Virus record (IMG/VR): IMGVR_UViG_3300009193_000001
Source of the DNA: a virus
Taxonomy: Duplodnaviria; Heunggongvirae; Uroviricota; Caudoviricetes
Direction: 5' to 3' (one strand)
DNA: 32,311 nucleotides
Under the pieces are notes generated by a model, which made no database searches, was not told the origin of the DNA, and saw only the letters and a program-made list of their open reading frames with translations. The first letter of the stretch is position 1; each line of letters starts with the position of its first letter. The position numbers and the translations under genes are program-made. Shown here piece after piece: positions 515 through 31,148 of this stretch.

Positions 515-928
515 TTATATCGTAAATAATCCGAGGCGAGAAACCTTAGCAGATTCTTTGCGGCCTCGTTCGACCTTAGCTGTTTTAGCGTTATGACATT
601 GATGACATAATGACCGAAGATTTGAGAATGAATAAGATTTAGATTTATCGTCTTGTATTTCAATTACGTGGTCGATTACATCAGCGGCCTTATCTATATC
701 ATTATCTAAACAGTCCTCACAAAATGGTTGGACCGCAAACTTCTTAGCAGATAATACTTTCCATCGTTTGGTTGAGTATATCAACTGCCCACGAATGTTT
801 AGTTGGTGGGCTAGCTTTTTACGAGGGGGGGCATCTTTTTTATGCTTGTGTTTTTCACAACGTACCCCCTCCACTTGCTTGTTGATTATGACACGACATC
901 TTGGTGATGTGCACTGGATTTTAGACAT
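515..928 (-). CDS. HNH endonuclease, terminase-associated (HK97 gp74-like) type
   Basis: 137 aa; N-terminal CxxxxC..CxxH, then CEDC...DHVIEI...NLRSLCHQCHNAKT HNH core; AAGGA RBS upstream. Confidence 0.8.
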   Translation of the reverse strand: MSKIQCTSPRCRVIINKQVEGVRCEKHKHKKDAPPRKKLAHQLNIRGQLIYSTKRWKVLSAKKFAVQPFCEDCLDNDIDKAADVIDHVIEIQDDKSKSYSFSNLRSLCHQCHNAKTAKVERGRKESAKVSRLGLFTI

Positions 929-1517
929 ATCGTTTCCTTAATGCTTCGGCAATTTTAGGTTCTTGTGTCATGGCCAAATGAATAGCATGTTCGTGTTTTT
1001 TTCTCTTCCATGCTGTATGTGCATCTAATGGATTATCGTATGCACCCAAATACTCTGTGCGTCTAGTTGTTGGGTTTCTACATCTTGAGGTGTATTTACC
1101 TTTATCTATAGTAACACCCATAGGTAATATTGATGCTCTACTGGAACCACCATCAGTCAGGAATAAATTTATATGTCGTTCTAAGAAAACGCAATTATCT
1201 GGGCTATATATTTTATTATCTAATACTAATATATCTTTATCTAATTCTTTATCTTGCCATTTTTGCAAAACCATCCAGCTTCTAAAATTAGAAAAATATT
1301 TCCATTCTTCACATACACCACAGCCAATATATGATGGTTTAGCTTTATGGTATGTGACCGAATAACATCGTTCAATCATACTAACCCACTTAATATAAAA
1401 TGGGCATTTCCATAGACTTTTAAATTTTCTAGTGTTTCCAACTTTGGGTAGTTCTTCTCTTATGTGTGTGACGTAATCTGCATCATTTATACCGAAGCCA
1501 CAAACTAATTTAGACAT
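921..1517 (-). CDS. HNH-type homing endonuclease with AP2-like C-terminus
   Basis: 198 aa; GFGINDADY, WVSMIERCY, VCEEWKYFSNF, LDKDIL..IYSPDNCVF, and YLGAYDNPLDAHTAW; GGAGG RBS; paralog of three other ORFs in the window. Confidence 0.8.
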   Translation of the reverse strand: MSKLVCGFGINDADYVTHIREELPKVGNTRKFKSLWKCPFYIKWVSMIERCYSVTYHKAKPSYIGCGVCEEWKYFSNFRSWMVLQKWQDKELDKDILVLDNKIYSPDNCVFLERHINLFLTDGGSSRASILPMGVTIDKGKYTSRCRNPTTRRTEYLGAYDNPLDAHTAWKRKKHEHAIHLAMTQEPKIAEALRKRYV

Positions 1518-1579: not shown

Positions 1580-2167
1580 TTATTTAGTCTTTACGTATCT
1601 AACACATGATGTTCCGTGATTGTTTAAGTATGACTTTTTAGTGCGAGCTGTTGCATTACAGTGTGGACATTTTAAGTCTTCTGGAACTTCCGGCTCTTCA
1701 GCTTTAGGTTCAACGACTTTAGTTTCAACTGTTGGGTCAACGATTACTTTGGTTTCTAAATCAGGTTTCAATGATTTGTTTCCTTCTGTAGTTTCGACAC
1801 TTGGTTCTTCACTAATCAAGTCGATAAAGTCTTCTTTCTTTGGTGCTGGTTCTTCCAACACTACCGGAGCAACTTCAGGTACAACATCGCCAGCAACTAA
1901 TAGTTCAAGTGCTTTGATTTTGTTACTTAATGATTTACGGGTATGTATATCGTTCGGAATTTCCAAACTAAACAATTTAGCATATTTAACTACACCGATA
2001 TGGCATAATGTACGAGCATATTCCATATTGAATTCATCAGTATGTTCAAACTTTTCTTCACCTAAAAACTGTACAGTTAGACCGTGTGTTCTTAAGTATT
2101 TTGCCGCACATTCAGCTCGACCTTCTTCAGTTAACCCTTCTGGGTTGACAATAATATGTTGGTTCAT
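1580..2167 (-). CDS. Hypothetical protein with acidic Pro/Glu-rich linker and C-terminal zinc-finger-like motif
   Basis: 195 aa ORF with AGGA RBS; ends CPHC-x12-H-x3-C. Confidence 0.75.
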   Translation of the reverse strand: MNQHIIVNPEGLTEEGRAECAAKYLRTHGLTVQFLGEEKFEHTDEFNMEYARTLCHIGVVKYAKLFSLEIPNDIHTRKSLSNKIKALELLVAGDVVPEVAPVVLEEPAPKKEDFIDLISEEPSVETTEGNKSLKPDLETKVIVDPTVETKVVEPKAEEPEVPEDLKCPHCNATARTKKSYLNNHGTSCVRYVKTK

Positions 2168-2239
2168 GATTGTATCCTATTCAATTAATTTAATAAAATA
2201 CACTCTTGAATGTACTTTAGTAAATAGAACTTAAAGGGA

Positions 2240-2970
2240 ATGGGAAGATGTACCATCATTGGTAGGAGAGGACCAATAACCGTACACCTTCCACGAAGGC
2301 AATCGTTCTCGATTAGCGAACCACCGTGTGGTGGAGCATGCTTTATCGTCAATATGACGGAATGTTACGAATGTTAACGTCCACTGGTAAACATACAAAC
2401 TATCGGACGAGTACTAGGTTTTTATCGTGGTCTGCTTTGCCACTATCACACTCGCGCAGGGAGCTGTTCTTATGGGTAGCTGGGTCATGGTGTGCGGATA
2501 TCGTCTACACAATTTGAGCATCAATGATAGGCTTGGTAGACATAAAATGTAAGTAGACCTCTTACAGCAGTATTCCTCCCTTACGGGGAATTGAATTCGG
2601 AACTACAGCATCACAGCTTTGTATATGACAGAGGCAATAGGCAAGTATTACAATATCATTTTGTCGCTTCTGTATGGTTTTGTGCTTGTTCCTGAAATGG
2701 TGGGAGCGTTGCAACCGTTACTGGTTTATCTGCGATTTCACACATATCGATATGTTCCGCCTCCAAGCCAAGATAATGGCTATTATAATTTGTTACGTTA
2801 AACACAGACTTTTACTGCACCGTTTATTCCATAGCTAATGGATATTCCCCTTAACGTCCGAGGTGGTGTTTACTTATATGTATTATGAACTTTGCTTAGT
2901 AGGTTGAGCACCTATCTTTAACATTCATTAGCATTTTCATACTTGAGAGTTCTCACACTCTTACACATTT
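2240..2970 (-). ncRNA. Putative large structured ncRNA (~730 nt) directly downstream of tRNA(CAT)
   Basis: No credible ORF. Nested long-range helices 2368-2377/2918-2927, 2387-2393/2867-2873, 2403-2409/2855-2861, a second nested set within 2599-2692, and many local hairpins. Two of the longest helices contain G-U wobbles only on the minus strand. Ends are approximate. Confidence 0.7.
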
Positions 2971-2974
2971 AATT

Positions 2975-3052
2975 TGGTGAACCTAGGCGGACTCGAACCG
3001 CTCCTTCCTCCTGTTATGAGCAGGGAGCATTAACCAGTTATGCTATAGGTCC
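2975..3052 (-). tRNA. tRNA with CAT anticodon, probably tRNA-Ile2 (lysidine type); elongator Met not excluded
   Basis: GGACCTA/TAGGTTC acceptor stem, A73, encoded CCA, D-arm GCAT/ATGC, loop CTCATAA, T-loop TTCGAGT. C4-G69 and C5-G68 match the E. coli TilS determinants. One mismatch in the anticodon stem and a bulge or mismatch in the T-stem. Confidence 0.88.
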
Positions 3053-3054
3053 AT

Positions 3055-3242
3055 ATATTTTTGTTTGTATATTCAGGGAGTGCAAAGTGCCGTTACATAA
3101 ACGCTACAATTCAAGTATGACTGTAACTGGTAATTCTACCGCATCTAGTCAATTATACCATTACAATATAATCCGTAGAACATCTCTTTCCCATGTTAGC
3201 ACCCGTATAGTGACTTAGTCACGAAGATACAAACAAAAATAT
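3055..3242 (-). ncRNA. Putative ~190-nt structured RNA closed by a perfect 16-bp stem
   Basis: ATATTTTTGTTTGTAT (3055-3070) is the exact reverse complement of 3227-3242; internal helices include crossing ones. Strand inferred from the neighbours. Confidence 0.6.
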
Positions 3243-3341
3243 TCCTTTACACAACATATGAAAGGGGTAAATATGACCACTATTTACAAAGGGATTTATT
3301 AAACGTTTACAAGGCATAAACGGATACCATTCTTTCGAATT

Positions 3342-3481
3342 TGGCGGACTGTATAGGATTCGAACCTTGACTGGGTTAGCATGACCCATCAGTAAACATA
3401 TTAGGGACCAGTTCCCTACTTCAGATATAAACCTTTACGTTTTCGGCTTATTCGTTATATCGTTATGTTTTATTACAGTCC
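3342..3481 (-). ncRNA. 140-nt tRNA-like RNA with CCA end and no anticodon arm
   Basis: GGACTGTA/TACAGTCC acceptor stem, G73, CCA, AGG-TTCGAAT-CCT T-arm, long variable-arm-like hairpin; the D and anticodon region is replaced by a three-helix branched domain. Confidence 0.8.
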
Positions 3482-3486
3482 ATATT

Positions 3487-3574
3487 TGGTTGAGATGGCT
3501 GGACTCGAACCAGCAAACCGTATACTCGGTGACAAACTCATTCGTCTGTTATGTTTCCGTTGCATCACATCTCT
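3487..3574 (-). tRNA. Class II tRNA-like RNA with non-canonical anticodon loop (undetermined or pseudo tRNA)
   Basis: GAGATG/CATCTC acceptor stem with A1-A72 mismatch, A73, CCA, D-arm ATG-CAACGGAAA-CAT, perfect GCTGG-TTCGAGT-CCAGC T-arm, variable arm ACCG/CGGT; anticodon loop is CGAATGAG (8 nt, no U33). Confidence 0.72.
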
Positions 3575-3743
3575 TTAAAGTGTTGGGAGTCACCGTGCAT
3601 AATGACTTTACGTGCTAACTCCTTCGTAGCACAACCTTTGTGACATTTGTTTAAACTTAGATACCCACGAAGCTCTTCCGTATCAGTATCCTCAATCGTT
3701 AAAGAGTGTCTTATCTCTTAAGCTGTCGGGCTTTATCCAACCA

Positions 3744-4286
3744 TTAGGTGAATCTCTTTATTAGCGCAGAAGAAATTATATCACATGTTTCATGTTTCGC
3801 CAACATGTACGCATATTCTTTCTTTTTATTTGCCCATGATGCATGGGCGGCATTTGCGTCATCGAATGTGCCTAAATGCACTCTATTTTTTGTTATTGGT
3901 TCTCGTATACTTGACTGGAATTTTTTACCTTTTTTCAATACGCCAACAGGTAGATTATATTTATCTGTTGGTATAATTTGTATAAAATTATTTATTTGGC
4001 TAGTTATAAACACACAAGTATTCGGTCCATATATATTATTACCAATAACCAACAAATCTTTATCTAGTTGTTTACCAATATAATCTTGGGTTATCATCCA
4101 ATTTCTAAAATTCGAAAATAATTTCCAGTCATCGCACACCTCACAATCTAAATATGTTGGGTGCATTTTATGGTACAATACAGAATAACACCTACACATC
4201 ATAGATTTCCATCTGTTATAAAATGGACATCCTCTAGTCTTGTAATCTGCGTCGTTTATTCCGACACCGTACATCATTCTAGCCAT
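3744..4286 (-). CDS. HNH-type homing endonuclease with AP2-like C-terminus
   Basis: Start moved to the ATG at 4286 behind GGAGG; GVGINDADY, WKSMMCRCY, VCDDWKLFSNF, LDKDLL, HLGTFDDANAAHASW. Confidence 0.8.
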   Translation of the reverse strand: MARMMYGVGINDADYKTRGCPFYNRWKSMMCRCYSVLYHKMHPTYLDCEVCDDWKLFSNFRNWMITQDYIGKQLDKDLLVIGNNIYGPNTCVFITSQINNFIQIIPTDKYNLPVGVLKKGKKFQSSIREPITKNRVHLGTFDDANAAHASWANKKKEYAYMLAKHETCDIISSALIKRFT

Positions 4287-4326
4287 ATATATTCCTCCGA
4301 TGGTAGGAGGTCGCGCAATCACTGCG

Positions 4327-4905
4327 TTAACCAAATTCGTTCAGATACTTGCGGTAGCTATCTCTTCTAACGTCGCCATTATTGCATGGCAAATTGTGTG
4401 ACGTCAAGAACTTTTTTTGTTTATCTACTTTGTTATTTTTCGGCTTAAGCCAATCGATAACTTTAAGTTCGATTTTTGCATATTCGAGTGTTACGCCATA
4501 TCGTTCGGTATAAGTTTTTTCTGCGTGACATTGCAGACATAATATCTGTAAGTCATCAACGGTTACATCTAAAACTGATGTGGCGTATGGTCCAATATCA
4601 GCAATCTTCAATAGCGAGTGTTCGCCTTTGATGTGGTCCGTTTGTACATCTGGTCCTTTGAAACGCTGTTTACAGCATACACACTCCCACAACCACTTAG
4701 TTCTGGTGTTTGGGTCCATGTCTGGTATACGTGTCAATTCCAGTTTAAGTAAGCGTACAGGATGCATCATCCACGTCTGTCTTATGTTTGACCGGACTAT
4801 CGTACATAATGATTTTTCTGAAGCTAGTTCACCACCGATTGTTTTAATCAGCGATTGTTTAAATTCATGTTTTTTCTCTAGGTCAGCTTTGCTAGGCTTA
4901 GCCAT
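4327..4905 (-). CDS. HNH endonuclease family protein
   Basis: 192 aa; CVCC...VQTDHI...DDLQILCLQCHAEKT; AAGGAG RBS. Confidence 0.75.
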   Translation of the reverse strand: MAKPSKADLEKKHEFKQSLIKTIGGELASEKSLCTIVRSNIRQTWMMHPVRLLKLELTRIPDMDPNTRTKWLWECVCCKQRFKGPDVQTDHIKGEHSLLKIADIGPYATSVLDVTVDDLQILCLQCHAEKTYTERYGVTLEYAKIELKVIDWLKPKNNKVDKQKKFLTSHNLPCNNGDVRRDSYRKYLNEFG

Positions 4906-5125: not shown

Positions 5126-5247
5126 TGCTCTTCCTAATAGTACGAACAATAGATTTAGGATTGATGATGAGCCGATTAATGAATGCTCTTCCTAATAGTA
5201 CGAACAATAGATTTTAGAGTGATATTTTATTGTTCGTACTATTAGGA
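5126..5247. promoter_or_regulatory. Three copies of a T7-promoter-like motif (two rightward, one leftward); candidate phage RNAP promoters or origin element
   Basis: 31-bp direct repeat at 5126-5156 and 5184-5214; its 20-bp core TCCTAATAGTACGAACAATA is inverted at 5228-5247. TAATA-N8-AATA-G has the same spacing as T7 TAATA-CGACTCAC-TATA-G. Confidence 0.6.
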
Positions 5248-5277
5248 CAACACACCGTAAAAAACTATCCCCTTCTC

Positions 5278-5328
5278 TATATACGTGTGCGCGTACACAT
5301 ACACGCACGTACACACGCATGCGCACAC
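5278..5328. repeat. 51-bp perfect alternating pyrimidine/purine tract
   Basis: TATATACGTGTGCGCGTACACATACACGCACGTACACACGCATGCGCACAC. Confidence 0.9.
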
Positions 5329-5587
5329 CCGTTGTCTATTAAAAAATATACAAAAAGAATTCGTGCCTCATATTTTCGCACATTTTAACATTCAGATAAA
5401 CTATCGTTCATCTTCATTAAACAAACATCAAAAACTAAACATGGTGGTCTTCGACCACGCAGCTTCGCTGCAAAAACTTAATCTTAAATATTTTTATTGA
5501 AATAACATCATTAAATATTATAAAATCATTGCCAGTATCATTCTAGGCCGCACACGAGGCGGTGTTTGAAATAAAATAAAATAATCA

Positions 5588-5616
5588 TTTACAATTAAAT
5601 CATTAAAATATAGAAT
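5588..5616 (+). promoter_or_regulatory. Sigma70-type promoter for the RNAP gene
   Basis: TTTACA-17 bp-TAGAAT with an A-tract UP-like element upstream, 29 bp before the ATG. Confidence 0.65.
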
Positions 5617-5644
5617 ACGTTCATTGAGTTTGTAGGAGAAAATA

Positions 5645-8032
5645 ATGAATCAATTTACACAGAGAGATTTCGAAGAATATACATCACAGTTGGGTACAGA
5701 AAAGATTATGTGTGCGGCAGACGATGCATCGAAAGATTTTGAGTCGAACCACTTAAAGAAAATCGTCAAAGAAATGATTGAGCCATTCGGTGATTACATC
5801 AACGAGAGAGCGAAATTAGAAGAGAAAAATTACACTAAGGGTCCGAAGCCATTAATATTAAAATTATTAAAATCTGACGCTCTGGTGAACTCTCGTAAGA
5901 ACGATAAGACTATCACTCCGTTACAGTTGAGCTTTATCACGACTAAAATAGTAATATCGTCGATTCGATGTAATGATGAGAACACCAAAGAGACCTATAC
6001 CGCAAGCAAAATTGGTAAAGAAATCAATTTGAATTTGTGTCATGAATTTAGATTATCTGAAGGTGAAGTAGTCAAGTATGGTGCGTTCATGGTGCGTTAT
6101 TTTGCTGAAGCATTTCCACAATATGTTAGCGTGGATATGAGCTATGAAGATAGAAAATCTAAGTGGCAAGAGAAGCAACTAATACCGACCCAATTGTACC
6201 TCGATACGGTAGCAAACAACATTGAAACTTTAGCTGAATTATCTATCGTAACTTTTCCTATGGTTGAGAAGCCGATGGACTGGACAACCGATGGTAGCGA
6301 TGGTGGTTATTACACAGAAATTTATAAACGTAACATCATTAAAAAGCGTCAGGTTGGCGAAGATGCTGGTATCAATACTAATATTTCTAGTGCCGTTAAT
6401 TTAATCCAAAGCACACCATGGGAATTGAACTTGGATATTATTCATATCGTTGATGATTTGAATAAAACTAAGCCAGAAAGTTTAAAGAAAGTTTTCCCGT
6501 TGGTTGTGGAAAAAACACCAGCTAAACCGTTCCCTGATGTTTTGTATCCTGACATGGATGAAGACCAACTCAAAATTCATCGTCAATGGTCATCTCTTGA
6601 GAAGAAACTCAAGAAGGATAGACAGGCTAAGATATCTGTCGATTTGGCGCGAGAGGGTGCATTAAGACAGGCTAAGTTCTTCATACATGATACTAAATTT
6701 CATAAAGGTAAACTATGGTTTCCACATGATTTAGATTACCGTATCAGAACATATAACAAGTCGATGACCGGACTAAACACCCAAGGTGCAGACTTCCAAA
6801 AAGGTATGATTAAGTTTGCGAATAAGCATGCAGTAACTACCGATAATGGAATCAAATGGCTCAAGATAAATATGGCCAACTTGATTGGTTTCGATAAACT
6901 AAACTTAGCTGAGCGTATACAGAAATGTAATGAGCATGAAGGGTTAATTCGTGAAGTTGTTAAGAACCCGTACAAGTGCACTGAATGGCATAAGTGGGAT
7001 AAACCAGTACAAGGTTTAGCTGCAGCGATTGAGTACGTTAAATGGCTCGATAACGACCAAGCATTGCTACAAACCCATGTACAATTAGATGGATTATGTA
7101 ACGGTGTGCAAAATTTGGCAGCGTTAACTCGTGACCATTTAGTTGCGCCACATGTTGGTTTAATCTGGACACCAGAACGTGGTGATGTTTATGGTTATGT
7201 AAATAACTCAGTGATTGACCGTATAACGCCTCTAGGATGTCGTATGAGCGACGAATGGCTACGTTCCGAGCTAATGACTCGCGGACTAACTAAAACGCCA
7301 GTAATGACTCGCTCATACGGTGCAACGATATATGGCATCAAAGATGGTTGTAAAGAATATATCGAAGACCAAGGTAAGGCCGCACATTTTGAAGATTTGT
7401 TTAAGGCTGGTAATTGGATGGGGGAACGTATATGGGAATCGATGGAAGGTAGCTTAGCCGGACCTATGTCATTCATGGAGTGGGCGCAGAAATGTGCTGG
7501 TATATTGGCCAAAGCTAATTTACCTTTACCGTGGACTAATCCAGCGTTGGCTAAGTGTTTACAATCACCATTCGAGACTAAACGTAAAGAAATTAAAGTC
7601 AAGATTAATGGCCAAGCACAATCTTATTATATCATGAAGCATACTAATAAGATTGCTCGTGCAAAATCAGAATCGAGTAGTTCACCAAACATGATTCATT
7701 CGTGTGATGGTAGCCATTTGATTGGCACAACTAATAGATGTGAAGTTAAAGGCATTCGTGATTTTGCGATGGTACATGATAGCTTCGGTACTATACCGGA
7801 CCACGCTGAAGGGCTATTAGATAGCACTAAAGATGCATGGGTAGACCAGTACAGTGAAGATTGGATTTTACGTTGGTATCATGAATGGGTAGACTTTGCG
7901 ATTTCTAAAGGTAAGCCTGAAGTAGCTGCAGCAATACCACACCCATATAAAGAAGACGATGACGGTAAATTTGTTATCGTTGGTACACTTGATATTGAAG
8001 CTGTAAGAAAATCTGATTTTTTCTTTGCATAA
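5645..8032 (+). CDS. T7/T3-type single-subunit DNA-dependent RNA polymerase
   Basis: 795 aa; DLDYRIRTY, motif A QLDGLCNGVQ, motif B RGLTKTPVMTRSYG, PNMIHSCDGSHL, motif C VHDSFGT, C-terminal DFFFA. Confidence 0.96.
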   Translation: MNQFTQRDFEEYTSQLGTEKIMCAADDASKDFESNHLKKIVKEMIEPFGDYINERAKLEEKNYTKGPKPLILKLLKSDALVNSRKNDKTITPLQLSFITTKIVISSIRCNDENTKETYTASKIGKEINLNLCHEFRLSEGEVVKYGAFMVRYFAEAFPQYVSVDMSYEDRKSKWQEKQLIPTQLYLDTVANNIETLAELSIVTFPMVEKPMDWTTDGSDGGYYTEIYKRNIIKKRQVGEDAGINTNISSAVNLIQSTPWELNLDIIHIVDDLNKTKPESLKKVFPLVVEKTPAKPFPDVLYPDMDEDQLKIHRQWSSLEKKLKKDRQAKISVDLAREGALRQAKFFIHDTKFHKGKLWFPHDLDYRIRTYNKSMTGLNTQGADFQKGMIKFANKHAVTTDNGIKWLKINMANLIGFDKLNLAERIQKCNEHEGLIREVVKNPYKCTEWHKWDKPVQGLAAAIEYVKWLDNDQALLQTHVQLDGLCNGVQNLAALTRDHLVAPHVGLIWTPERGDVYGYVNNSVIDRITPLGCRMSDEWLRSELMTRGLTKTPVMTRSYGATIYGIKDGCKEYIEDQGKAAHFEDLFKAGNWMGERIWESMEGSLAGPMSFMEWAQKCAGILAKANLPLPWTNPALAKCLQSPFETKRKEIKVKINGQAQSYYIMKHTNKIARAKSESSSSPNMIHSCDGSHLIGTTNRCEVKGIRDFAMVHDSFGTIPDHAEGLLDSTKDAWVDQYSEDWILRWYHEWVDFAISKGKPEVAAAIPHPYKEDDDGKFVIVGTLDIEAVRKSDFFFA

Positions 8033-15371: not shown

Positions 15372-15379
15372 ATTGATAG

Positions 15380-15415
15380 TTGACTTTACACTGGGACTCT
15401 ATATAATGAGTCCCA
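15380..15415 (+). promoter_or_regulatory. Sigma70 promoter with stem-loop over -10 (PeSL-like)
   Basis: TTGACT-16-TATAAT; arms TGGGACTC/GAGTCCCA; 15376-15437 is identical to 25245-25306. Confidence 0.85.
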
Positions 15416-15444
15416 ACATAAAGATAACTTACTGGAGCAATCAC

Positions 15445-16481
<1,037 letters not shown>

Positions 16482-29840: not shown

Positions 29841-31148
29841 ATGTCAAATTATAAATGTATCGTAGCCCAGATTTCTACAGTAATTCCAATTCCAAATGCG
29901 GACCGCATTCATACTGCAATCGTTTTAGGCGAACAGGTAATCGTAAGCAAAGAATGGACAGTCGGAAAGATTGGTTTGTTTTTCCCAGCAGATACACAAT
30001 TATCTGAAGAATTCTGTAGTGAGAATAATCTATTTCGCCATGCGCATTTAAACAAAGACCCAAGTAAAGCCGGATTCTTTGATGATAATCGCAAGGTTCG
30101 TTGTCAGCCATTTCTTAAGGTGCGCAGTGAGGGTTTCTTTTGTGGCCTAGATGCTTTAGATTATACTGGCACCACTAAAGCAATGCCAATCGGTTATGCG
30201 TTTGACCATATCGGTGGTAAATTGTTATGTGAAAAATACATGTCAGAAAAGATGTTAGCTAAACTATCATCAAACAAGACACAGGCCAAATCAAAGCGTC
30301 GAGACAATACACCAATTAAATCTACTCCGATGTTCGAAAAGCATGTGACTTCGCACCAGTACAGACAAAATACACACTTAATTGAAAAAGGTGATTTAGT
30401 TTCTTTTCATGCGAAAGTTCATGGTACATCGGCACGTGTGGGCTACACGAAAGTTAAATATAAACCAGTAAGCCTATTAGACCGTTTATTGGCTAAGGTC
30501 GGTCTATTTGATACAGAGCGATGGGAATATATAGTTGGTAGTCGTAACGTCACAATTGATAGTAGCGGTGGCCACCACGGCAGCAACCAGTTCCGTCATG
30601 ATGTAATGGATAAACTGAAGCCATTCCTCAAGAAAGGTATGACCGTGTATGGCGAAATTGCTGGATACGCAAACGGCAAATTGATTATGTCACCACATAA
30701 AACCAAAGGTTTAAAAGATAAAAAGTTTGCCAAAAAATATGGCAGCGAAGTTAAATATACCTACGGGTGTAATGAAGGTGAGTCTCGCTTTCATGTGTAT
30801 CGTATCTCGTATACTAACGAATCTGGTATCGAGTTGGACTTTACCGACGCACAAATTAAGCAATGGTGTCTAGATGCCGGAGTTCATGCAACGTTTGACG
30901 TTCACCAGCCAATCATTTTCGATGGCGACGTTTAAGGTCTGAATGCGTTAGTTGAATACTTAACGGAGCGACCGGAATTATTAACTGAAGATTTTATCGA
31001 CCCGACTCATTTATCTGAAGGTATTATTGTTCGTGTGGATAAAGGGACATTAGTTCCTAAGTTCCTTAAGTCTAAGTCATATGCATTTAAAGTCGCTGAA
31101 GGTATCCTAAAAGAAACTGGGGATTTAGATTTAGAAGAAACATCATAA
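29841..31148 (+). CDS. RNA ligase (Rnl2/DRB0094-like) with one in-frame TAA at 30933-30935
   Basis: N-terminal OB-like region, motif I KVHGTS, III YGEIAG, IIIa FHVYRI; motifs IV EGIIVR and V KSKS lie after the TAA in the same frame. Confidence 0.82.

Follow-up and report, generated by a model that had tools for sequence, protein, structure and literature searches.

A proposed tRNA-region cassette in an uncultured marine phage carries a divergent abiF-type hairpin that may act as an anti-AbiF decoy

The window analyzed here comprises the first 32,311 nucleotides (nt) of IMG/VR record IMGVR_UViG_3300009193_000001, a 97.8-kb genome of an uncultured marine phage (Caudoviricetes) that is 95% complete and carries a T7-like RNA polymerase together with T4-like replication genes. 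This polymerase is at most 29% identical to those of cultured phages, which indicates only distant kinship. Upstream of the polymerase gene, within a leftward block, lies the element under study, a gene-free region of 1576 nt (2168-3743). Read in the direction of transcription, the block comprises w4327-4905, w3744-4334, the gene-free region, w1580-2167, w921-1517 and w515-928; all flanking genes are located on the minus strand, and so are the RNA units (Table 1). The original prediction had described the region as a cluster made only of RNAs with a single decoding tRNA, and both statements agree with our analysis. No open reading frame (ORF) with a start codon exceeds 63 amino acids (aa) in 2168-3743, searches of Pfam and PHROGs with the ten longest stop-free frames of both strands gave no match, and ARAGORN detects one tRNA in the genome, with anticodon CAU; the two further tRNA-shaped units, A and B, are non-canonical. 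We propose that the phage acquired the region as a tRNA-region cassette associated with homing endonucleases, and that it likely includes an anti-AbiF decoy, an explanation that we consider possible but somewhat short of probable.

Table 1 Features of the gene-free region, its flanking genes and a distant ligase candidate, in window coordinates.
Feature	Position	Strand	Basis or remark
HNH gene	515-928	-	Last of leftward block
Second phrog_953 gene	921-1517	-	42% identical to phrog_953 gene w3744
Gene without assigned family, 195 aa, conserved	1580..2167	-	Downstream of RNA region; zinc-finger-like C-terminus
Conserved promoter-like / 5'-UTR (untranslated region) block before next gene	2188..2226	-	83% identity to L004 over 41 nt
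Conserved 20-bp hairpin, invariant loop UCUCCU	2243..2292	-	Folding and comparison of three phages
Short block common to L004	2401..2421	-	Downstream edge of inserted cargo
abiF-type antitoxin-like hairpin, 38 nt	2503..2540	-	Rfam RF03085
Unassigned stretch, 434 nt	2541..2974	-	No ORF or family match; fold not unusually stable
tRNA, anticodon CAU, elongator type (G1-C72 paired)	2975..3052	-	ARAGORN; Rfam tRNA 42.9 bits
188-nt unit closed by 20-bp AU-rich stem	3055..3242	-	Inverted repeat; fold z -3.4
AU-rich spacer, 99 nt	3243..3341	-	Small hairpins not beyond chance
Unit B, 140-nt tRNA-like RNA	3342..3481	-	Direct repeat and fold
Unit A, class II tRNA body, 4-bp long variable arm, A73, encoded CCA	3487..3574	-	Rfam, ARAGORN, minimum-free-energy fold
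Leader, ancestral to phage group	3575..3743	-	blastn to L004, L047
HNH-family homing-endonuclease-like gene (phrog_953)	3744..4334	-	Directly upstream of RNA region; absent here in relatives
Candidate sigma-70 promoter, extended -10: TTGGCG-17-TGnTATAAT	3775..3803	-	Consensus match only
HNH-like gene, kept in relatives	4327-4905	-	First of leftward block
DraRnl (Rnl5)-like RNA ligase candidate	29841..30935	+	PF21189 OB domain 28.6 bits (cut-off 27); PF09414 19.9 bits (cut-off 27, below)

Apart from the tRNA units, a single module can be matched to a described RNA family. It is a hairpin resembling the abiF antitoxin RNA (RF03085; AbiFr / RCd22), and its match falls below the cut-off of that family. 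The abiF RNA binds and blocks the HEPN RNase AbiF/Abi_2; together they make up a toxin-antitoxin system of type III that acts by abortive infection and is related to the Cas13 ancestor (PMC12373285; PMC12737573; PMC13064643). The window copy shares with this RNA the two-stem hairpin and the conserved loop letters. It aligns to model positions 1-37 with both stems formed, a 6-bp outer and a 3-bp inner one, carries the loop letters CCAAGCCU.UCA..GAUGCUCAAAU, and displays the 11-nt loop, the 6-nt 3' internal loop and the conserved letters of the RF03085 architecture. Its outer stem covaries, in that the letters differ from the consensus and pairing is kept. The score of 33.3 bits corresponds to an E-value of 0.001 in a 1.8-kb search and of 1.3e-5 over the whole genome, and two related phage records reached at most 12.3 bits with the same model, which is noise. 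In an alignment of 18 sequences (the window copy and 17 phage-borne abiF hairpins), the window hairpin retains all 17 invariant columns and six of the eight near-invariant ones. Because of its E-value, the retained invariant columns and the mere noise in relatives, we take it, on sequence grounds, as a true but divergent abiF member that fails the curated cut-off.

Hairpins of this type without a detectable toxin gene recur in other phages. Searching with a pattern of the motif core yielded 18 loci in 17 viral records; 16 of these loci were scanned with Rfam, of which 15 score 45-61 bits and one (the core in L028) lies below the cut-off. An Abi_2 gene is present in only four of the 17 records, and it is missing from four of the seven records whose completeness is 90% or more. 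Eight records have a tRNA on the same strand within 200 nt of the motif, and in six of these (L014, L015, L016, L022, L028 and L029) the motif is 4-13 nt from a tRNA end; one phage carries two tandem abiF copies after an array of 23 tRNAs. Among cultured phages, blastn placed the hairpin in 67 records, including those of Synechococcus phages. In Acj61, a T4-like Acinetobacter phage, it adjoins a GIY-YIG endonuclease ~2 kb after the tRNA cluster, in T7-like Aeromonas phages it is located between the portal and scaffold genes, and in cluster J mycobacteriophages it precedes tRNA-Gly by 269 nt. The copies of Acj61 and Thibault score 58 and 55 bits, respectively, and that of T7-Ah was found by blastn only; no Abi_2 gene was found in these three complete isolate genomes. 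For cyanophage S-CREM1, an 'abiF sRNA' has been listed without an assigned function (PMC9964418). S-CREM1, Acj61, T7-Ah and Thibault thus have in common with the window an abiF-type hairpin in a phage without Abi_2, often in or near tRNA arrays. According to a review, the lactococcal phage sk1 has a hairpin at its cos site that inhibits AbiF, though it is unlike the antitoxin (PMC13064643). In the searchable literature, abiF hairpins without a toxin were nowhere described as a phage counter-defense or decoy, although an earlier publication may exist.

Two additional features were noticed at these loci. Three unrelated-looking viral contigs have a conserved RNA-like stretch of ~150 nt after the abiF hairpin that abuts a tRNA (L014:3212-3400; L015, below 3620 on the minus strand; L022, below 6240 on the minus strand). 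This stretch starts around AAAUGGUUGUAGUGUGGCRGACUACG, ends in a U-run terminator and has no Rfam match. In two others (L020:1448-3010 and L025:1417-2979), an abiF hairpin with its own promoter and terminator precedes a 520-aa ORF, which the Abi_2 Pfam model does not detect in record G012 and which may encode a divergent AbiF-like or Cas13-ancestor-like protein.

Several observations weigh against the proposed cassette and its decoy. The hairpin lies under the RF03085 gathering score (33.3 vs 37 bits) and reads UU for AC of CAACGAUG, two near-invariant loop positions; given the sub-cut-off score and the change from AC to UU, it may be decayed or may no longer bind AbiF. Whereas the scored copies of Acj61, Thibault and S-CREM1 reach 52-58 bits, above the threshold, and the motif often abuts a tRNA in viral contigs, the window copy is weaker and stands 434 nt from the tRNA. 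It also departs from canonical abiF RNA in being single, toxin-less and embedded in an RNA-only stretch, and we found no tandem antitoxin-type repeats. In sliding windows, the z of the fold remains close to 0 on either strand for almost the whole of 2340-3740. Homologues of units A and B were found neither in 50,697 phage genomes (blastn), nor in IMG/VR (structure-aware patterns), nor in related contigs, so that selection on these units cannot be shown. No Abi_2 (PF07751) gene is detectable in any frame of the genome, but the Pfam model may miss divergent toxins.

A toxin that escapes the Pfam model could also lie next to the hairpin itself. The order of hairpin, terminator-like stem and gene resembles canonical abiF loci (PMC12373285), and a highly divergent AbiF-like toxin encoded by the phage, for example by the 195-aa gene, would make the hairpin the antitoxin of a complete toxin-antitoxin module. 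We regard this as very improbable. RF03085 members typically stand immediately upstream of abiF / Abi_2, and no such toxin gene follows the hairpin here. Neither Abi_2 nor any other Pfam or PHROG model matches the 195-aa protein, which shows no sign of a HEPN domain, its nearest atlas leads being weak zinc-finger proteins. Moreover, an abiF hairpin is absent upstream of the homologues that L004 and L006 have of this gene.

We next consider the origin of the region. The order w4327, gap, w1580, w515 is common to the related contigs L004/L005 and L006, in which the corresponding gaps measure 536 nt (L004) and 629 nt (L006) and contain no tRNA, tRNA-like unit or abiF hit. Alignable to L004 are only the outer part of the leader (3743-3632; 72-74% identity over 77-86 nt by blastn), positions 2401-2421, the hairpin at 2243-2292 and the block at 2188-2226. 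A closer relative, L047 (80% protein identity), shares the leader as far as 3579 (82% over 60 nt, block 3579-3638), and its contig ends 9 nt after the shared leader. The contigs that we reached via the RNA polymerase and the upstream gene likewise contain no tRNA and no tRNA-like unit, and those of their loci that were scanned with Rfam gave no abiF hairpin. The two phrog_953 endonuclease genes of the window are extra relative to the related phages. Because only the ends of the region align to relatives, we read ~1.15 kb (3574 to ~2430), which includes every tRNA-like unit, together with the endonuclease gene w3744 as cargo inserted into an older spacer. The G+C content of this cargo is 0.41-0.46, compared with 0.37 for the genome. 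In four samples (three besides this one) the region is letter-identical, and no covariation can be measured for its units because all copies are the same. The two closest relatives, L045 and L046 (independent assemblies, 98.8% identical), both end at window position 3861, inside w3744, a shared break that suggests a strain-variable or repeated junction.

Among the cargo, the tRNA is the module with the clearest function. It passes the RF00005 cut-off of 29 bits, has a 7-nt anticodon loop with U33 and is called tRNA-Met(cat) by ARAGORN. When each part of the region was compared with the phage genomes by blastn, only this tRNA, which resembles tRNA-Met genes from Vibrio phages (~80% identity), and short T-arm pieces were matched. 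It contains the pairs C4-G69 and C5-G68, as in tRNA-Ile2, a likeness judged by the identity rules of E. coli TilS, and on account of these pairs it may, by analogy, decode AUA after lysidine modification. AUA accounts for 27 per 1000 codons in the phage and is as frequent as AUG; the tRNA probably serves this heavy use of AUA/AUG codons. The most similar tRNA-Met, from Vibrio phage 1.187.O, is directly followed by an unannotated gap of 1.65 kb (L044:1357-3007), which has no detectable similarity to the window region and no Rfam hit.

Units A and B share their 3' ends with this tRNA. A repeat search showed that the three ends form one direct-repeat family at 2972, 3339 and 3484, each with an encoded CCA followed by AAU. 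Unit A narrowly misses the Rfam tRNA cut-off (28.7 bits, E 0.002, match 3490-3574; cut-off 29) and has an A/A mismatch at position 1-72. Its anticodon loop reads CGAAUGAG (8 nt) or, on a 6-bp stem, GAAUGA (6 nt), and it lacks a 7-nt anticodon loop with U33 and purine 37; ARAGORN at -ps95 labels the unit tRNA-??? with the four-base anticodon aatg. An 8-nt loop of this kind on a well-formed body with A73 and a long variable arm would suit a working tRNA for a four-base codon (anticodon AAUG, codon CAUU) or for another frame shift in a phage gene. We consider this hardly credible because U33 is missing and a genome-wide search for CATT returned only one weak site joining two frames (15902), at which the upstream frame is that of neither overlapping ORF; position 34 of the unit, moreover, is A.

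Unit B combines G73-CCA, an acceptor stem of 8 bp and the T-loop UUCGAAU, whose 3-bp stem is weak, with a D-arm-like hairpin that has the loop AACUGGU, letters that also occur within the D-loop of tRNA(CAU), and with an anticodon-like arm that has the loop CAUGCUA, without U33. An additional 7-bp helix encloses a further hairpin; it arises because two insertions pair mutually. The fold has a z of -2.7 and was equalled in stability by two of 200 shuffles. The Rfam tRNA model recognizes no cloverleaf in it (no match at E<=10). We also rejected the idea that unit B is a tRNA interrupted by two clean insertions, since ARAGORN calls, weak and inconsistent ones, were obtained for only 6 of 448 variants with in-silico deletions. 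The combination of a tRNA-like acceptor/T-arm module with a non-tRNA body recalls YrlA / Y RNA-type tRNA mimics and transfer-messenger RNA (tmRNA). Both identities were rejected: unit B has no Rfam match to YrlA or Y RNA, and the phage carries no Ro60/TROVE gene (PF05731); for tmRNA, we obtained only a noise match to tmRNA_permuted (13.7 bits, E 4.4) and no ARAGORN call, and the acceptor lacks G3-U70. As an observation made post hoc, CUCAU in the anticodon loop of tRNA(CAU) (2975-3052) pairs perfectly over 5 nt with AUGAG in the loop of unit A (3536-3543), and the loop of unit B likewise contains AUG; the chance expectation is ~1%.

The irregularities of these units could also mean that the region is a decaying tRNA cluster with tRNA(CAU) as its one working member. 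A and B would then be tRNA pseudogenes, the abiF-like hairpin would be the remnant of a captured module, and spacer deposited by the traffic of homing endonucleases would make up the remainder. Decay is a serious rival, since A and B are both singletons and the hairpin scores below its threshold, and it would equally account for the mismatch and abnormal loop of unit A, the 3-bp T-stem of unit B and its failure with the tRNA model, the two changed near-invariant positions of the hairpin, the z-values near 0 across most of the region and the abundance of mobile endonuclease genes in the flanks. We nevertheless judge it somewhat unlikely, as the defects are not scattered but cluster in the anticodon region: the acceptor stems (6/7 and 8/8 pairs), T-loops, encoded CCA and shared CCAAAU trailer are intact in all three units. 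Decay is also at variance with the mutual pairing of the unit B insertions and with the preservation of both stems and every invariant column in the abiF-like hairpin. The identity of the region in four samples, a further point in favor of maintenance, shows only that the copies are recent. Units A and B thus keep the parts needed for processing and lack the decoding part, which fits processing handles, decoys or recent decay.

Processing at tRNA-like ends had been put forward in the original prediction as a means to release larger RNAs from tightly packed modules with structured spacers. The packing is borne out in part. Units A and B are separated by 5 nt and the inverted-repeat unit ends 2 nt before the 5' end of tRNA(CAU), but a 99-nt spacer and the unassigned stretch of 434 nt interrupt the array. 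The hairpins reported in 3244-3322 are not beyond chance (z -1.15 for spacer 3243-3341, with 26 of 200 shuffles equally stable). Nor does the ~730-nt block at 2240-2970 behave as one large structured RNA, a candidate that we rejected since most of it folds like shuffled sequence: 120-nt sliding windows give z ~0 throughout 2340-2860 on both strands, and the overall z of -2.35 is owed mostly to the terminal hairpin at 2243-2292. The block is a composite of the abiF-like hairpin, ~200 nt of ancestral spacer at its end and a remainder without excess stability, which removes the main candidate for a released large RNA. The inverted-repeat unit is better defined. Its closing arms (3055-3074 / 3223-3242; 20 nt) are 95% complementary, and it is a candidate for a double-strand (RNase III-type) processing site or a small RNA; no further copy exists in the genome, on which basis we rejected a multi-copy mobile element.

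A single precursor cut at tRNA-like marks might still yield large stable RNAs (~730 and ~190 nt) with functions of their own, perhaps repaired or circularized by a phage ligase. The common strand, the promoter and closing hairpin described below, the junctions of 2 and 5 nt and the stable RNAs known from the T4 tRNA region all agree with such a model. The RNA ligase that had been likened to DRB0094 can also be identified, as a DraRnl-like gene that a six-frame PF09414 search of the genome missed; it is 26 kb distant, however, and nothing ties it to the cluster. Together with the composite nature of the 730-nt block, mostly without excess stability, and the lack of homologues of any large RNA (blastn, the same phage genomes), this makes the model improbable. 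Release of neighboring small RNAs by tRNA-shaped units, by contrast, gains indirect support by analogy, because bona fide abiF hairpins are found 4-13 nt from tRNA ends elsewhere.

One leftward transcript through the region is plausible, given the single strand, a near-consensus promoter upstream and a conserved closing hairpin. The candidate promoter (3803-3775) matches 10 of 12 hexamer positions with the TG present, and sits in the 3' end of the endonuclease gene w3744, ~30 nt before the RNA region; the number of promoters in the region does not exceed the shuffled expectation. A second candidate is the motif CCTAATAGTACGAACAATAG, which has only three copies in the genome, two rightward and one leftward, within 115 nt (5133-5246), apart from a weaker copy at 178. 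Its leftward copy at 5246 is a possible phage-polymerase promoter driving the RNA-region block. The motif GGATAAAGCCCGACAGCTTA was rejected as a repeated phage promoter, as it is unique in the genome. The leader is not unusually stable overall (z -0.5) and contains a conserved hairpin (3659-3691) with two compensatory pairs; a search with the leader motif returned nothing in IMG/VR and only chance matches in metagenomes. At the other end, the hairpin at 2243-2292 has a z of -5.4 on the minus strand compared with -1.2 on the plus strand, and compensatory changes affect 8 of 16 pairs across three phages. In two relatives it precedes a U-run and resembles a terminator, whereas the window copy has no U-run. 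In each of the three phages, the gene that follows has a Shine-Dalgarno sequence (UAGGA, AGGAGA and AGGAG) complementary to the hairpin loop (UCUCCU / UCCUA; window 2243-2292 and 2168-2185, L004 8476-8600, L006 1311-1380). The hairpin could serve to control translation or be no more than a terminator.

Our analysis shows the sequence features with their strand, an insertion when the region is compared with related phages, no detectable toxin gene, and repeated cases of abiF hairpins without a toxin elsewhere; we infer single-unit transcription, processing and all functions except that of the tRNA, as follows. The ~1.15-kb cassette would have entered an older spacer between genes of a leftward operon, which may be early or accessory. 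One RNA would run from the promoter at 3803-3775 (or the leftward promoter at 5246) to the hairpin at 2243-2292 and carry tRNA(CAU), units A and B, the long double-stranded stem and the solitary abiF-type hairpin. The three tRNA-shaped units would supply sites for RNase P and 3'-end processing, and the 20-bp stem abutting the tRNA an RNase III-type cut site. When infection halts host transcription, the unstable AbiF antitoxin RNA of the host would decay, and the phage hairpin could act as a decoy antitoxin that keeps the AbiF (Abi_2, HEPN RNase) of a host that has one blocked, in the manner of the pseudo-ToxI of phage phiTE against ToxN. Units A and B would serve as processing handles and possibly as extra decoys.

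Mimicry of an antitoxin RNA by phages is established for ToxIN, as summarized in a review (Blower et al. 2012, as cited in PMC13064643). Like the window, the Pectobacterium phage phiTE described there has copied an antitoxin RNA of type III but lacks the toxin, and the window fits this type of mimic in having a phage-borne antitoxin-like RNA with no cognate toxin found. The window differs in that its hairpin belongs to the HEPN AbiF family and not to ToxN, is single where pseudo-ToxI has tandem repeats, and is so far a sequence prediction.

A second parallel concerns the setting. The T4 tRNA region, with its species 1 and 2 RNAs, and T5-like regions combine homing endonucleases with stable RNAs that have no known function. 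They share with the window an RNA-only cluster oriented on a single strand, HNH flanks and non-tRNA RNAs beside tRNAs; the window differs from them in having only one decoding tRNA. Comparison with T-even phages gave only a 33-nt T-arm match (E 0.08) and no counterpart of the T4 species 1 and 2 RNAs.

More broadly, toxin-less abiF hairpins could be a widespread phage RNA counter-defense against AbiF/Abi_2, often placed in tRNA arrays for release by tRNA-processing enzymes, with the window copy as a divergent example and the tRNA look-alikes as further decoys for RNA-cutting defense nucleases. We put this forward as a speculative generalization that, on present evidence, is unlikely. Its appeal lies in the target: AbiF is a common abortive-infection toxin and a proposed Cas13 ancestor, and its RNA antitoxin was characterized only in 2025. 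If correct, the generalization would place next to pseudo-ToxI a second natural example of phages mimicking an antitoxin RNA, account for hairpins that stand unannotated in lytic T4-like and T7-like phages although these are well studied, and assign a function to part of the non-tRNA RNA in phage tRNA regions. We regard toxin-less abiF hairpins in phage tRNA arrays as the most interesting lead of this study. For the window alone the gain is smaller, in that a supposed giant-RNA operon is reduced to a mosaic of acquired small RNAs, ancestral spacer and uncharacterized sequence.

Two minor observations concern other genes. In the window, an ORF without assigned function (15373-15936) overlaps the DHFR gene (15861-16481) by 76 nt, and the CATT site at 15902 falls here. 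In a relative's contig behind P0037 (genes 5224-7162), a gene of the Acb2/Tad1-hairpin family lies directly 3' of the HNH gene of the leftward block. Acb2/Tad1 is a family of anti-CBASS/Thoeris sponges, and the presence of this gene lends weak support to an anti-defense neighborhood.

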